A stretch of DNA of 64,000 nt from an uncultured Erysipelotrichaceae bacterium (GTDB lineage Bacteria; Bacillota_I; Bacilli_A; RF39; UBA660), in NCBI GenBank assembly GCA_948442015.1, contig CAOJRP010000002.1:9841-73840 (forward strand), given 5' to 3'. The first letter of the stretch is position 1, and every line of letters starts with the position of its first letter. A model generated the notes under the pieces. That model searched no databases and was not told where the DNA came from. It saw only the letters and a program-made list of their open reading frames with translations. A program made the translations under genes and the position numbers. Positions 8,017 through 48,640 of this stretch are shown here, piece by piece.

Positions 8017-11000
8017 ATGGATGACCAAGAAAAGCCAAAAGCAATAATAAAAAGGCCTATTAAAGGTTCTGCAAGTTATGTTAAAACTAATTTTAAATTA
8101 GTTGATGGCAAAATGGTTTATGATAGAAGTTTTAAATCGTTTGAACAAGAAGAAAATGAAAAAATTATGGGTGCATATCAAAAAAGAAATGGTAAACCTC
8201 TTAAAGAAGATGCGACGAAGATAAGAGAAGAAAACGAAAGAAGAAGAGAAGAAAGTATAAAAAGAAGAAAAGAAGATGCCAGAAAGACGAAAATAATTGT
8301 TGATAAATTACAAGAAAAAGAAACATTAACTAAAAAAACAGTTATAAGTAAAACAAATAATACGAATACACAAGTAAAAAATGTAAATTTATTTGCTGAG
8401 TTAAAAATTGGCGAAGATGATAAAAGTATTCTTTTAGATGTTATTAAATATTCTCTAAGTGCAAGAGAAATAACTATTTTAAAAGATTTTTATGGTTCTA
8501 AATATGATGGGTTAAATCGAAAGACTAATAGTAAAGAAACTAAAAGTAATGCTAGAATAGTCATAAGTAAAATTAAACCAAAATTAAAAGAAACTTTAAA
8601 AATTAAAAATGATAAACTAAAGTATCGTTACTATTTACTTAGTTTTAAAAATGAAGTAGAGTATATTTCCCAAAATATCTTTAAAGATATTCCAAAAAGT
8701 ACTTTGGAAAATGCTTATAAAAAATTAACTGTAGAAGAAGAAGGTATTGCCAAAAAATATTTTGACTCTTTAAAAGGAGAAAAATTAACAGACGAAGAAT
8801 TGATTGTTTTTTCAAATGTTATTTTTCCTAAATTAAATGTATATGTTTTTAGTCCTAAAGGAATAGATGCTTATTTTAAAGTTTATACGACAGATGAACA
8901 AAAAGTATTAAGAGATATTGTAAAATTTCTTCCTAAAAGTTATTTAGAAATAATTAAGAAAAAATTTGGTGAGAATCTTAATGGTCAAAATACAGAGAAA
9001 CTATCAAAAAGTGAAGTTTGGAATTTTAATAAAACTATCACTCCTAAAATAGAGAAAAAATGTAAAGAATTAAGTGAACAAAAAGGAACTTGTGATTATT
9101 ATATATCTTTAATTAAAGGTTTTTCTTCTCTAAATATCGAAGCAAAATGCCATGTAAAAGATGAAATTGATAAGAAAATTCTTCTTAGTCTATTAGAAAA
9201 ACTTAATGAAAGAGATTTAAATATTCTATTCACGACAGAAGAATTGTCTAATATAACTAGAAATGAGTTATCATCCAAAAGATACAGGATAACTAATTAT
9301 CTTAAAAAGAGTATTATAGAATTAAGAAAAGTTTATGATGATCAAGAATCATATAAAATCCTTTTAGAACAACTATTAAATGGTAATCCAATAAATGAAG
9401 CAAGAGAAAAACAAACAGTTAACAAGCAAGCAGATAAAATAGATTTTACAATATCTTTTGCCCATTATCTTGAAAAAGTTTCTTTAAATATTTTAGCAGA
9501 TGTTATTAATTATGCTTTAAAAGATGACGAAAAAGAATTTATTTATACTTTATTTGCTGGTGATTACGAAAAAAGTGTGGTTACTAAGTTAAAAAATAAA
9601 GTTAAGAGATTTAATAAAATAAATATTAAAATAAACTCTTTTGTTAATTATATAGTAGATTTTCTTGAAGAATATGAAGAATTTCTTGATAGATTAAAAG
9701 CTTTTCCTAAAGATGAGGATTACAATTTGTATCAAATTAAAGATCTAAAAACTTTCTTAGATATTCCTTATGATGCAAATTTAAAGTTTATTCTTAAAAA
9801 TAGTTTAGATAAAGAAGAAAAGTTGTTGCTTCAAAAAAGATTTGGTTTAGCTTATGAAGGATTTTTAGCTAGAAAAATTGATAGTAAGGAAAAATATTCT
9901 TTAATGCTTATTAAAGATAAAATTATAAAACAATATTCTTTAATAAAAGATAATAATTTAAGTGATATTGAAAAATTAAAATTCCTAAAGGAAGAAGAAA
10001 GTATAAGAAAAAAAGGTCCTTCTTTAATTGAATATCTAAATATGAAAGAAGATGAAAAAGAAAATTTAGATCTTGCTCTTGTAACACTTATTCCTAAATA
10101 TATAGATATTCTCAAGAAAAAATTTGGCCCTCTTTATGATGGTATAAATAGAGAAAAGTTAAACTCTAATGAAAATAACTGTTTTTTTGAGTTGATAATG
10201 CCTAAACTTAGGGAAGCTTTTAGAATTATTAATGAAAGTGAGGAAGTGGAAAAAGAATTAAATAAATTAACAAGTAAAAATAAATTTGGTTATCGTTATT
10301 TGTCATTATATGAATTCTTTGAATTGCAAGAAGATGAGAAAGATACTCTTCTAACGATAGTTAATGATACTTTTACTACTGATGAGATTTCTTTACTTCA
10401 AAAAAGATTTGGTCCATTATATGATGGTGTAAATATTGAAGAGATAACGGATGAAGAAAAAAAATATATTCGTATTTCTTTACTTCCAAGATTAAAAGAT
10501 GCTCTTAATTCCCAAGATTTACCGCTTTGTAAGAAAAATAAGGTTTCATTACAAGAATATTTAGGTCTAGATGATGAAGAAATTAAATATTTATCTTTAG
10601 CTATTACTACATTAAAAGAAGAACATATTTTACTTTTACAAAAGAATTTTGGTTCATTATACGTTGGAGTTAATACTAAAGAACTAACTCGAAATGAAAA
10701 AAGTCAACTAGCTCAAACAATTAAACCAAAATTAAAAGAAGTTATCCGTTTATTAAATGAGGTAAGAGAAGAACAATTAGAAGAGGAATTAGATAAATTA
10801 ACAAGTAAAAATAAATTTGGTTATCGAAATTTATCATTATATGAACTTCTAGGTTTATCACTTAGTGATAAAAATGTCCTTATTAATAGTATTAATAAAA
10901 TATTTGATAATAACGAAATTTCTTTACTCCAAAAAAGATTTGGTCCATTATATGATGGGGTTGGTATTAAAGGAGTAACTGAGGAAGAAAATAAAATTAT

Positions 11001-18423: not shown

Positions 18424-18510
18424 TGTTTTGAAGGCGATTCATCAAAACCGCACTGAAAAGGTTATAAGTTTTTTCTAAAACACCTTAAAGGCGTGACTTA
18501 AAATTATAAG
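18424..18510 (+). promoter_or_regulatory. L21-leader-like structured 5' UTR
   Basis: About 95-nt leader between the promoter and rplU, with a gttttga...tcaaaac hairpin. Firmicutes carry a ribosomal-protein leader at this position. Confidence 0.45.
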
Positions 18511-27394: not shown

Positions 27395-28055
27395 TCATTT
27401 ATATCAAAAAAAGACAATTAAAAGAATTGATAATAAGTTAAAGCTTTTAAAGAGTAAATATAGTACATTATTTATTTTAAACATAAGATTATTTGTCAGC
27501 TTGAGTGTTTTAGTTCTTCTAGTTTTATTCTTTGATATTGGCATAGTTCTAGGACCAATACTAGCAATCATTGTTTATTATTTATTTGAATATTTATTTC
27601 TGGATTTGAAAATTAGTAAAAGAATAAAAAAGCTAAATAAAGAGGCTTTATCTTTTTTTGAAATGCTTTTAATTGCTTTAAAAAAAGATAGTTTGTTACA
27701 AGCTCTAAATAATGTAGCAAGTAGTATGAACACTGAAATATCATTAAGTTTTCGTCAAGTAGTTAATGAAGTTTCTTTAGGAAATAGTTTAAATACCGCT
27801 TTAGATACTTTAAAAAGAAGTTTACCAAGTAAAGAAATTAGACTTTTAATTACAAGTTTACAAAATACTAATATGAGTGTCTTAATAGAAGAATTAGAAG
27901 ATAGGATAGAAGTATTAAAAGAAAAAAATGCTTTAGATAATATGTATAATAATAGACTAACACTAATTAAAGGAAATATTGTAACGTTATTATTTATTAT
28001 AGTTTTTGTATTAATTGTTCTTTATCAATTGATTATTCTAAATTTATTGGGATAA
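27387..28055 (+). CDS. TadC-like type II secretion system F-family membrane protein
   Basis: Overlaps the tadB-like stop. TM - helical domain - TM architecture, with synteny support. Confidence 0.55.
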   Translation: MSNHLYQKKTIKRIDNKLKLLKSKYSTLFILNIRLFVSLSVLVLLVLFFDIGIVLGPILAIIVYYLFEYLFLDLKISKRIKKLNKEALSFFEMLLIALKKDSLLQALNNVASSMNTEISLSFRQVVNEVSLGNSLNTALDTLKRSLPSKEIRLLITSLQNTNMSVLIEELEDRIEVLKEKNALDNMYNNRLTLIKGNIVTLLFIIVFVLIVLYQLIILNLLG

Positions 28056-28136
28056 GAGTTATTTGTTTACATTCTTTGACACTAAATTAAAAAAATTGTT
28101 AATTTGTCAATTTTTGGATTACCATCAAAATATTAA

Positions 28137-28187
28137 AACAATAATTAAGTTATTGCTAAACAGTAATTTAATTATTGTTATTTTTAT
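28137..28187 (+). terminator. probable terminator of the tad operon
   Basis: Perfect 12-bp inverted repeat aacaataattaa (28137-28148) / ttaattattgtt (28168-28179), followed by atttttat. Confidence 0.45.
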
Positions 28188-28212
28188 GTTGCAATAATCT
28201 AAAAATCGTGAT

Positions 28213-28241
28213 TTTACAAGCTTTTTTTCATATGCTATAGT
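28213..28241 (+). promoter_or_regulatory. sigma-A promoter (extended -10) for the small-peptide mRNA
   Basis: TTTACA (28213-28218), 17-nt spacer ending in TGc, TATAGT (28236-28241). Confidence 0.6.
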
Positions 28242-28357
28242 ACCACCTAAGGCACGAGTTGATGTGTCGGTTTTGCCTTTTTTCTTATTTACTTTTTAAA
28301 GGGTTGATTGATTATCAATTACTTTAGGAAGTATGGAAGATTGAAGGAGGTATATTT

Positions 28358-28438
28358 ATGAAGAAAATGAACAGAAGTTTATTAGTAATCATAGAAATAT
28401 TATTGTTTATTATAATATGGCAAATGTTATTTAAATAA
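28358..28438 (+). CDS. 26-aa hydrophobic peptide MKKMNRSLLVIIEILLFIIIWQMLFK (type I toxin-like)
   Basis: Strong RBS GAAGGAGG 7 nt upstream of the ATG. The peptide has a charged N-terminus, a single TM-length hydrophobic core and a C-terminal Lys. Too short for the ORF track. Confidence 0.5.
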   Translation: MKKMNRSLLVIIEILLFIIIWQMLFK

Positions 28439-28501
28439 GAAAAACCGATACTTTTGTATCGGAGTACCCAAAAGGCTCCGAGCAATCGCTCGTGTCTTTA
28501 T
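28438..28501 (-). ncRNA. about 60-nt convergent small RNA (candidate antitoxin)
   Basis: Bounded by a minus-strand promoter and a minus-strand intrinsic terminator: ccgatac-aaaa-gtatcgg followed by tttttc (plus-strand coordinates 28439-28462). It also contains an internal hairpin cgagc-gatt-gctcg. Confidence 0.5.
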
Positions 28502-28507
28502 AACTAG

Positions 28508-28536
28508 ATAATAACATGTTTTGATATAGAGTTCAA
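28508..28536 (-). promoter_or_regulatory. sigma-A promoter on the minus strand
   Basis: Reverse complement reads TTGAAC (28536-28531), 17-nt spacer, TATTAT (28513-28508). Confidence 0.6.
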
Positions 28537-28682
28537 TAATAAAATGTTTAAAATATGGTATTTATAGTATTTGTTTTTATAGCATTTTAAAAAGTTCCAA
28601 AATACTTAATTATTTTTGTAAAAAACATAATTGCTATTTTCTCTTATTTTTACTATAATTGAAATAGTAGAGGAGAATTATA

Positions 28683-29414
28683 ATGAAAGAAAAAATAATT
28701 CTTATAACTGGTGGAGCAAGTGGAATAGGATTAGCTACTGCTAAAAAGGTTTCGATTGATAATAAAGTCATTATTGCTGATTGCCAAAATATTGATAAAA
28801 ATTTTATTAAAAGTAACTTTGATAATTATGAAAATGTTTATTATTTTAAATGTGATATATCAAAAAAAGAAGAAATATTAAACTTGAAAAAATATATATT
28901 AGATAATTTTGGGAAATTAGATTGCTTAGTATGTGATGCTGGAATAATGCCTTTACCTTGTGGTATTGATGATATAACCGATGAAAACATAGATAGAACA
29001 ATCGATGTTAATTTAAAAGGCACTTTTAAATGTTTAAATATTCTTGGTAATCTTATAAAAGAAACATCTAAAATTGGAAGTATTGTAAATATATCTTCTG
29101 TTGATGGAATAATAGGAGAACCTTATGGTATAATTTATTCAACAACAAAAGCAGGAATCATATCTCTAACTAAGTCTTTTGCTAGATATTTTAAAGGCGA
29201 TATTCGAGTTAATTGTGTAGCACCAGGTCTTATTGATACACCTTTAACAGATAGTACAGGAGAAGATCCAAGTTGGACAACTGATTATTCGATAATTAAA
29301 AGAATTGGAAGACCTGAAGAAGTGGCAGATAGTATAATATATTTATTATCTAATCAATCATCATATATAACAGGCCAAGTTTTAGTTGTTGATGGGGGAT
29401 TTACATTAAAATAG
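28683..29414 (+). CDS. SDR family oxidoreductase (FabG-like)
   Basis: ITGGASGIGLA Rossmann motif, NISS, YSTTKAG (YxxxK) and GQVLVVDGGF. Confidence 0.88.
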   Translation: MKEKIILITGGASGIGLATAKKVSIDNKVIIADCQNIDKNFIKSNFDNYENVYYFKCDISKKEEILNLKKYILDNFGKLDCLVCDAGIMPLPCGIDDITDENIDRTIDVNLKGTFKCLNILGNLIKETSKIGSIVNISSVDGIIGEPYGIIYSTTKAGIISLTKSFARYFKGDIRVNCVAPGLIDTPLTDSTGEDPSWTTDYSIIKRIGRPEEVADSIIYLLSNQSSYITGQVLVVDGGFTLK

Positions 29415-29433
29415 AAATAAGGAGAATAAAATT

Positions 29434-48388: not shown

Positions 48389-48431
48389 GTGTTACTTGCA
48401 GAAAAATTTTAAATACTATATAATATAAGAG

Positions 48432-48640
48432 AAATACGTTGAACAAGAGGAGTAGTCTTTGGTGTTTTGATAGAGAGTTAGTGGGTGGTGAAAACTAACA
48501 AACAAAGAAGATGAAGGTTGCTTGGGAGTAGAACCGTAAAATATGCGTTAAGTATTAAAAAGAGTATAACAACAGTTATAAATTAAGGTGGTACCGCGGG
48601 GTTAACTCGTCCTTAAGTTATAATTGTTTTTTTGTTAGAA
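48432..48640 (+). promoter_or_regulatory. T-box leader (valine specifier) controlling valS
   Basis: AGAGAG and GGTGGTGAAAA stem I elements. Specifier loop GAAG-GUU-G (GUU at 48517-48519). T-box AATTAAGGTGGTACCGCGGG (48581-48600). Terminator tataaattaagg...ccttaagttata followed by T7. Confidence 0.9.

Follow-up and report, generated by a model that had tools for sequence, protein, structure and literature searches.

The stretch of DNA analysed here (the window) comprises 64,000 nucleotides, positions 9,841 to 73,840 of contig CAOJRP010000002.1, from an uncultured Erysipelotrichaceae bacterium. The host assembly (GCA_948442015.1; labelled G000 in the coordinates of copies) has a size of 1.50 Mb and a GC content of 26%. 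In the window, an intergenic gap of ∼0.6 kb situated 3′ of the tad operon contains one intact module of ∼450 bases that resembles a type I toxin-antitoxin locus. Basically, a plus-strand gene for a hydrophobic peptide of 26 residues faces a candidate gene for a small antisense RNA on the minus strand (Table 1). A preliminary description of this DNA had placed a promoter, a ribosome-binding site and a peptide open reading frame (ORF) on the plus strand, and a promoter, a CGAGC hairpin and a terminator ending at the peptide stop codon on the minus strand. All of these elements were recovered when the sequence was read over 27900-28800. The span given at that time, 28213-28536, does hold the module, but the conserved unit begins ∼130 nt farther upstream, near 28075.

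Copies of the module and conservation of its elements

Searches with BLAST and an nhmmer profile identified 14 full-length and 2 partial copies of the module in the host genome. One further pseudogene was found only with the peptide profile. A congeneric metagenome-assembled genome (MAG), the "uncultured Tenericutes" SRR19759446_bin.44 (G001), carried 8 full and 4 partial copies. Sequence divergence among the copies was 10-30%, and the module makes up ∼0.5% of the genome. The copies are located between ordinary housekeeping genes, e.g. dnaB/cysS, ftsY/RNase J and lon/relA, and two tandem or near-tandem pairs were present (C14, 17047-17832, with a period of ∼445 nt, and G001:C27, 7606-8717). 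Comparative statistics were computed on the 22 full-length copies; 18 intact mRNAs were used for folding and 17 intact copies for the analysis of promoters.

The reading frame of 25-26 codons was open in 18 of the 22 full copies and contained no indels. The ATG and the hairpin behind the stop codon lay exactly 87 nt apart in each of the 21 copies in which this hairpin is preserved (it is lost in C11), whereas both untranslated regions (UTRs) were riddled with indels among the copies. Over all copy pairs, the proportions of synonymous (pS) and nonsynonymous (pN) differences were 0.46 and 0.25, respectively (pN/pS 0.55, and lower in most close pairs). Heterozygosity at codon positions 1, 2 and 3 amounted to 0.31, 0.17 and 0.35; a second position that varies least is expected when hydrophobicity is preserved. 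Even with identity down to 35%, the peptides kept the pattern MKK/R-x5-L-x3-I-hydrophobic-(Y/W)-x4-K/R, which corresponds to a single hydrophobic helix flanked by basic N- and C-termini. In the intact paralogues a strong ribosome-binding site was located 7-9 nt upstream of the ATG. Conservation of the ORF and purifying selection had been proposed as a test of the preliminary description, and the open frame, the lack of indels and the pN/pS value all came out in its favour. As judged from these sequence comparisons, the peptide frame is under constraint. Five of the peptides were compared with Pfam and NCBIfam and matched no family at E≤10.

Promoter-like matches did not exceed the chance level in this AT-rich DNA (9 found, 14.1 expected from shuffles); terminator-like sites did (3 found, 0.1 expected). 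The real evidence for the promoters is their conservation across the paralogues. Among the 17 intact copies, the -35, the TG and positions 1, 2, 5 and 6 of the -10 were all 100% conserved in the plus promoter. The same was true for the -35 TTG, the extended TG and positions 1, 2, 5 and 6 of the -10 in the minus promoter. In both promoters the spacer was fixed at a length of 17 nt and variable in sequence. The hairpin after the stop codon was 98.4% paired, and a compensatory CG-to-UA change occurred in 4 copies. On the plus strand an A-run always lies 5′ of this hairpin and a T-run exists only on the minus strand; thus, the hairpin can terminate minus-strand transcription only. These patterns support the view that the promoters and the minus-oriented terminator are conserved as would be expected of working sigma-70 signals.

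Together, the conserved minus promoter and terminator delimit a predicted minus-strand RNA of ∼62 nt. This RNA folded into a 5′ stem-loop domain and a terminator in all 18 copies folded. It is fully complementary to the 3′ UTR of the peptide mRNA, including the boxes A′ and B′ described below, and does not overlap the ORF. A cmscan search of the locus against Rfam gave no match at E≤10. The only Rfam matches above the gathering score in the window were a T-box leader (48430-48617, 127.6 bits) and a ribosomal protein L21 leader (18437-18508, 39.4 bits).

Decay was visible in 4 of the 22 full-length copies. One of these has lost the -10 and the leader and starts with ATA, another lacks the end of the ORF and the terminator, a third carries a frameshift and has no ribosome-binding site, and the fourth is interrupted by an internal stop. 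Some of the truncated host copies consist of 5′ halves only, one of them at a contig end. The decayed copies (C1:121452, C11, C20, C35 and G1L017) fit the turnover expected of toxin-antitoxin loci. At the syntenic site behind tad in G001 (C32:10727-11025; loci L022, L082 and L084; window counterpart, 28056-29433) the module is reduced to a decayed part, and the 243-aa SDR gene of the window (28683-29414) is missing from that site. The nearest G001 relative of the window copy (∼89-90% identity) is located on contig G001:C6 between different flanks, i.e. at a non-syntenic position. The remnant at the syntenic site and the location of the nearest relative elsewhere indicate that, within short periods, copies change place, undergo conversion or disappear. 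Two further copies, at C13:13703-16732, flank a gene of 479 aa, the N-terminus of which (MKKLKKIIPIIITFIIGISTTVGATTIFNSKDITYSSDKT) recurs beside the partial copy C1:87042.

The distribution of the module beyond the two genomes was analyzed with several profiles and patterns. No copy was present in a third species of the genus, the genome of which is 80% complete. When 200 other genera of the family were searched with a covariance model of the 3′ half, the only genome matched was that of the window itself. The peptide profile gave weak matches only over 150 genomes of the order (E ∼1e-3 or weaker), which resembled noise from transmembrane helices. Together, ∼350 other genomes of the same family and order contained no module. 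In a search of 185,579 species genomes the signature pattern was found only in the congeneric MAG, apart from 10 chance matches, and a scan of viral contigs yielded no true module match. The promoter pattern, searched over metagenomes, gave 2 true contigs from one assembly, whose intact copies were 98% identical to known sub-families. Short BLAST matches in other genera (L010-L014) were discarded, as the module profile does not confirm them. One of these, L010 (G012:C1:24827-24867), belongs to another genus of the family and comprises 41 nt with 85% identity to the start of the ORF (ATGAAGAAAAGTAAC...TTAGTAATCATAG). The stretch lies directly 3′ of a terminator and reads as truncated MKKSNYKYISNHSK. 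It could be a remnant of the module family, or the similarity could be due to chance.

Folding of the predicted peptide mRNA

The 18 intact mRNAs were folded jointly with RNAalifold. Alignment columns 3-11 paired with columns 264-272 in two separate runs, which places box A at the extreme 5′ end of the mRNA opposite box A′ in the 3′ UTR (28249-28258 with 28489-28498). In the A:A′ helix 95.7% of the cells were paired, and 12 double-change cells were distributed over 4 pairs (AU to GC and GC to AU). The observed value was reached by none of 500 shuffles, and slid registers gave 32-67%. One-sided changes in the helix core produced 12 G-U cells compared to 2 A-C cells. The first 42 nt of the mRNA and the tail after the hairpin formed a duplex of -23 to -35 kcal/mol in 18 of 18 intact copies, and cognate ends paired better than non-cognate ones (means of -30.2 and -24.7 kcal/mol, respectively; permutation p<5e-5). 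Calculated by strand, the mean duplex energy was -30.2 kcal/mol for the plus strand and -24.1 kcal/mol for the minus strand, with 47 and 13 wobble pairs, respectively. This asymmetry indicates that the selected molecule is the plus-strand RNA holding both arms. Consequently, the peptide mRNA is predicted to run through the region complementary to the small RNA. In minimum-free-energy folds the 5′ and 3′ ends were closed in 18 of 18 intact mRNAs.

A 5′-3′ closure of this kind (CACGAG with CTCGTG) had been suggested in the preliminary description, and the strong covariation bears it out. Likewise, the suggestion that the mRNA reaches into the region complementary to the small RNA is corroborated by the covariation of its 5′ end with this region and by G-U pairs tolerated on the plus strand only. 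Two other proposed structures did not hold. The pairing of GTGTCGG with CCGATAC was found in 83% of the cells, but without covariation (500 of 500 shuffles reach this value). A local hairpin at the 5′ end (28251-28268; 80.7% paired) was not above shuffled partners (148 of 500 reach it), and we rejected it as a conserved structure or attenuator.

In minimum-free-energy folds of the full-length mRNAs, the GGAG of the ribosome-binding site paired in most copies with the CCUU of leader box B, and the mean unpaired probability of the Shine-Dalgarno region was ∼0.18. Pairing between the leader segment and the stretch that precedes the Shine-Dalgarno sequence was again better in cognate than in non-cognate combinations (-14.6 and -11.6 kcal/mol, respectively; p<5e-5). 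In these folding models the ribosome-binding site is masked by a leader stem, the two sides of which co-evolve. Box B has further potential partners. It can pair with AAAGG(C) of the 3′ UTR, where the AAAGG core of box B′ is invariant, and compensatory changes between B and B′ were visible in duplex folds (GCCUUUAAA/UUUAAAGGC and ACCUUUAAU/AUUAAAGGU). In some sub-families box B also pairs with the stop-codon/A-run region (cognate -11.3 versus non-cognate -9.7, p=0.003), with a perfect match of 13 nt in the window. Given these several partners, alternative conformations of the mRNA are likely.

A repeat of ∼35 nt, inverted in the DNA, is sited just inside both promoters. The small RNA starts with UAAAGACACGAGC...GCCUUUU...GUAUCGGUUUUUC and the mRNA with UAAGGCACGAG...GUGUCGGUUUUGCCUUUUUUC. 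The mRNA leader is a condensed version of the small RNA in the same sense (box A, box B and GUAUCGG followed by a U-run), and both are complementary to the mRNA 3′ UTR. Being of the same sense, leader and small RNA would compete for the same mRNA 3′ sequence.

Table 1. Features of the module in the window, with decayed copies elsewhere in the host genome
Feature	Coordinates	Strand	Remarks
Conserved upstream part of the repeat unit	28075-28200	+	kept in most paralogues
Wider conserved box GTGATTTTACAAG		+	encloses the plus-strand promoter (28213-28241)
Promoter of the predicted toxin mRNA, TTTACA-17 nt-TGcTATAGT	-35, 28213-28218; extended -10, 28233-28241	+	sequence scan
Predicted toxin mRNA, ∼253 nt	28248-28500	+	start placed from the -10; end placed from the CGAGC/GCTCG hairpin plus TGTCTTTATA and the end of the 5′-3′ helix
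Box A AAGGCACGAG, 5′ arm of the long-distance helix	28249-28258	+	RNAalifold, covariation
Box B GCCTTTTTT with the leader just 3′ of it, anti-Shine-Dalgarno segment	28275-28291	+	
Shine-Dalgarno sequence/ribosome-binding site GAAGGAGG	28343-28350	+	read in the sequence
ORF of 26 codons, product MKKMNRSLLVIIEILLFIIIWQMLFK	28358-28438	+	putative membrane toxin
Terminator of the antisense RNA, CCGATAC-AAAA-GTATCGG then TTTTTC	28462-28445; T-run, 28444-28439	-	
Predicted antisense small RNA, ∼62 nt	28501-28438	-	5′ stem-loop domain, linker, terminator
Box B′ (AAAAGGC), complementary to box B	28470-28476	+	its complement in the small RNA is box B
Hairpin CGAGC/GCTCG	28479-28492		also flagged by the scan as a weak plus-strand terminator
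Box A′ CTCGTGTCTT, 3′ arm of the long-distance helix	28489-28498	+	overlaps the 3′ arm of the hairpin at 28479-28492
Promoter of the antisense RNA, TTGAAC-17 nt-TGtTATTAT	-35, 28536-28531; extended -10, 28516-28508	-	
Decayed or truncated copies in G000	C1:121452-121753, C11:31689-32023, C20:294-660, C35:9192-9260, C1:87042-87264, C9:53339-53458		

Interpretation and comparison with known type I systems

Several features by which type I loci are recognized come together in the module: a small (<60 aa) hydrophobic ORF with its own promoter and ribosome-binding site, a candidate antisense RNA gene delimited by the conserved minus promoter and terminator, and a toxin mRNA that, in folding models, is structured by a 5′-3′ interaction and a sequestered ribosome-binding site. 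We consider it probable that the module in the gap is an intact representative of a multicopy family of type I toxin-antitoxin-like loci that is restricted to the genus and has the looks of a selfish repeat unit. Most likely, this is a type I toxin-antitoxin family that has not been described before and has an unusual layout. By analogy to known systems, the peptide would be toxic by damaging the membrane.

Some points weigh against this interpretation. No known toxin or antitoxin family was matched, so that the assignment to type I rests on architecture. The copies are related to each other, and the shuffle and permutation statistics therefore overstate independence, although the compensatory changes are spread over different sub-families. 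Behind A′ the plus strand has a weak terminator, with a stem of 5 bp followed by TGTCTTTATA, which makes the 3′ end of the mRNA uncertain. Furthermore, the leader has several alternative pairings (with the ribosome-binding site, with B′ and with the stop-codon region), which are AT-rich and some of which could be due to chance.

If the module works as a type I system, the strong plus promoter would give rise to an mRNA of ∼250 nt for the 26-residue peptide that is closed and translationally silent. At least the first 10 nt (box A) would pair with the last nucleotides (box A′), as borne out by covariation, and box B (GCCUUU and flanks) would pair with the Shine-Dalgarno region, as borne out by the co-evolution of cognate partners. 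The conserved convergent promoter would produce the antisense RNA of ∼62 nt, whose terminator abuts the toxin stop codon. This RNA would pair with the 3′ UTR, a loop-loop contact at the shared hairpin being a plausible first step. By analogy, the resulting duplex of ∼60 bp could be cut by RNase III, which is encoded in the genome, and binding of the antisense RNA would free the 5′ end and strip off the protective closure, leading to degradation of the toxin mRNA before activation. Once the labile antisense RNA is lost, the stable mRNA might be processed or refolded, the ribosome-binding site would be freed and the peptide made.

The resemblance of leader and small RNA suggests a more specific, and clearly tentative, possibility to which we give less than even chances. 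The leader may be a built-in, same-sense mimic of the antitoxin RNA, by which the mRNA circularises on the target of the antitoxin. The antisense RNA would then act by strand displacement, exposing both ends and a long duplex to RNases. We know of no type I system for which such a control logic has been described.

Other explanations have to be weighed against a type I-like system. Small hydrophobic proteins with regulatory roles exist, and since the peptide matches no toxin family, it could belong to a non-toxic family of small membrane proteins (e.g. a regulator of a membrane complex), the expression of which is adjusted by a cis-antisense RNA together with a structured leader. However, at least 16 dispersed or tandem copies, several of them decayed, would be unexpected for a housekeeping protein in a reduced genome of 1.5 Mb, and the family is absent from the ∼350 related genomes. 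An mRNA that appears doubly locked, by 5′-3′ closure and by sequestration of the ribosome-binding site, and that is faced by a dedicated predicted antisense RNA also argues against this possibility, which we regard as unlikely. Alternatively, only the plus-strand gene might be real. The minus promoter would then be unused, no antitoxin RNA would be made and the hairpin and downstream region would stabilise or terminate the peptide mRNA at its 3′ end; the closure requires the 3′ boxes in any case, and promoter-like matches in such AT-rich DNA did not exceed chance. What makes this very unlikely is the minus promoter itself, with key positions that are invariant in 17 diverged copies, a fixed spacing of 17 nt and a variable spacer sequence. 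The promoter region also lies beyond the paired 3′ end of the mRNA, and the U-run of the hairpin is found on the minus strand only.

We also considered that the unit is a mobile or recombinogenic non-coding element, similar to miniature inverted-repeat transposable elements (MITEs) or repetitive extragenic palindromes (REPs), in which the inverted repeat acts at the DNA level and the ORF and promoters are incidental. The ∼35-nt inverted repeat, the dispersal over many intergenic sites and the non-syntenic position of the closest G001 relative of the window copy would agree with such an element. Yet the repeat is situated inside both promoters and not at the ends of the unit, and mismatches within it are much more frequently wobble pairs in the plus than in the minus strand, a signature of RNA. 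Moreover, the ORF displays a codon-position pattern without indels and the promoter hexamers are conserved in a sigma-70 pattern. An element of this type is thus highly improbable, and a MITE with terminal inverted repeats was rejected, as there are none at the unit ends.

Returning to the type I-like system, the module had been likened to txpA/RatA and bsrG/SR4 in the preliminary description. The likeness applies to the layout, since the predicted cis-antisense RNA overlaps the 3′ end of the toxin mRNA as in TxpA/RatA, BsrG/SR4, BsrE/SR5 and YonT/SR6 of Bacillus subtilis. It does not extend further, as there is no family match and the small RNA stops at the stop codon without overlapping the ORF. 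In the B. subtilis systems the mRNA is degraded in an RNase III-dependent manner, and SR4 also alters the structure at the ribosome-binding site; by analogy, RNase III-dependent mRNA decay would be the expected action in the module as well. To our knowledge, a covarying 5′-3′ closure has not been described for these systems. While the B. subtilis loci are single copies in prophage-like regions, the module is present in at least 16 copies between housekeeping genes, and its peptides and RNAs are unrelated to those of all four systems. The antisense overlap in TxpA/RatA, BsrG/SR4, BsrE/SR5 and YonT/SR6 reaches into the ORF (PMC8594479), whereas in the module it is confined to the 3′ UTR, ending at the stop codon.

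In this respect the module is closer to Fst/RNAII (par of pAD1) and SprA1/SprA1as, which are transcribed as convergent RNAs and in which the antisense RNA overlaps only the 3′ UTR/terminator region of the toxin mRNA and not the ORF (PMC8594479). A convergent pair with a 3′-side antisense RNA that spares the ORF is also predicted here, and a small single-helix peptide and a ribosome-binding site sequestered by 5′ structure are further common traits. As regards homology to Fst or PepA1, the peptide has no Pfam or NCBIfam match at E≤10, with Fst-type models included in the search, and no Rfam antitoxin was matched. The par repeats at the 5′ ends are direct in the DNA and the RNAs are complementary there; in the module the repeats are inverted, and small RNA and leader are of the same sense. 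In addition, the module terminator is oriented for the minus strand only, which differs from both Fst/RNAII and SprA1/SprA1as.

The 5′-3′ closure recalls hok/Sok of enterobacterial plasmids and chromosomes and AapA1/IsoA1 of Helicobacter pylori. The full-length toxin mRNAs of these systems are locked by a 5′-3′ interaction and a sequestered ribosome-binding site (PMC8594479; PMC6733600). A long-distance interaction of the ends in the full-length mRNA, a sequestered ribosome-binding site, likely alternative or metastable folds and multiple copies on the chromosome are shared with the module. In hok/Sok and AapA1/IsoA1, however, the antisense RNA is directed against the 5′ part of the mRNA, which is activated by 3′ trimming, whereas the module antisense RNA covers the 3′ arm of the closure. 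The module also differs in having no leader ORF, a host of Gram-positive type and an unrelated peptide without Pfam match. In Escherichia coli, Ldr/Rdl (LDR repeats) and Ibs/Sib (QUAD repeats) likewise first came to notice as repeated intergenic units of 300-500 nt, some of them in tandem, each with a tiny hydrophobic peptide (a toxin there, a putative one here) and an antisense RNA (a predicted one here). The antisense RNA is positioned at the 5′ UTR in the case of Rdl and covers the whole ORF in the case of Sib (PMC8594479), which is different from the module, and there is no sequence relationship. For Fst/SprA1, TxpA/BsrG and hok/AapA alike, the module lacks at least one defining feature that was tested; it probably represents a new family with an unusual variant of type I architecture.

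Type I systems are difficult to detect by homology, and very little is known of them beyond the cultured model bacteria. Within the titles and abstracts returned by a literature search (∼8.4 million papers) on type I toxin-antitoxin systems and Mollicutes, no such system was mentioned. The more than 20 diverged copies represent an unusually rich natural mutagenesis series, from which the promoters, the reading frame, the terminator and the covarying 5′-3′ closure are already apparent. Occupation of ∼0.5% of a reduced genome raises the question of a role for so many copies. If it holds true, competition between leader and antitoxin would be a novel mode of toxin mRNA control by an antisense RNA, and this leader-mimic logic would occur in a family that is restricted to an uncultured gut lineage with reduced genomes.

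Upstream part of the repeat unit

The conserved upstream part of the unit contains an AT-rich palindrome of 19 nt (arms at 28137-28155 and 28161-28179, 89% complementary) that is followed by a T-run. The region also holds around 5 CAATAAT motifs, which occur in either orientation, and GATTA can pair with TAATC farther out. The strand asymmetry of the palindrome was inconsistent between copies. The ORF segment ATTATTGTTT (28386-28409), which comprises Leu-Leu-Phe codons, is complementary to the upstream CAATAAT motif (28157-28180 and 28136-28145); these matches, a perfect one of 10 nt and one of 24 nt at 71%, may be due to chance in AT-rich sequence. The upstream part is possibly an insulating terminator, a third small transcript, an operator array or a regulator-binding site.

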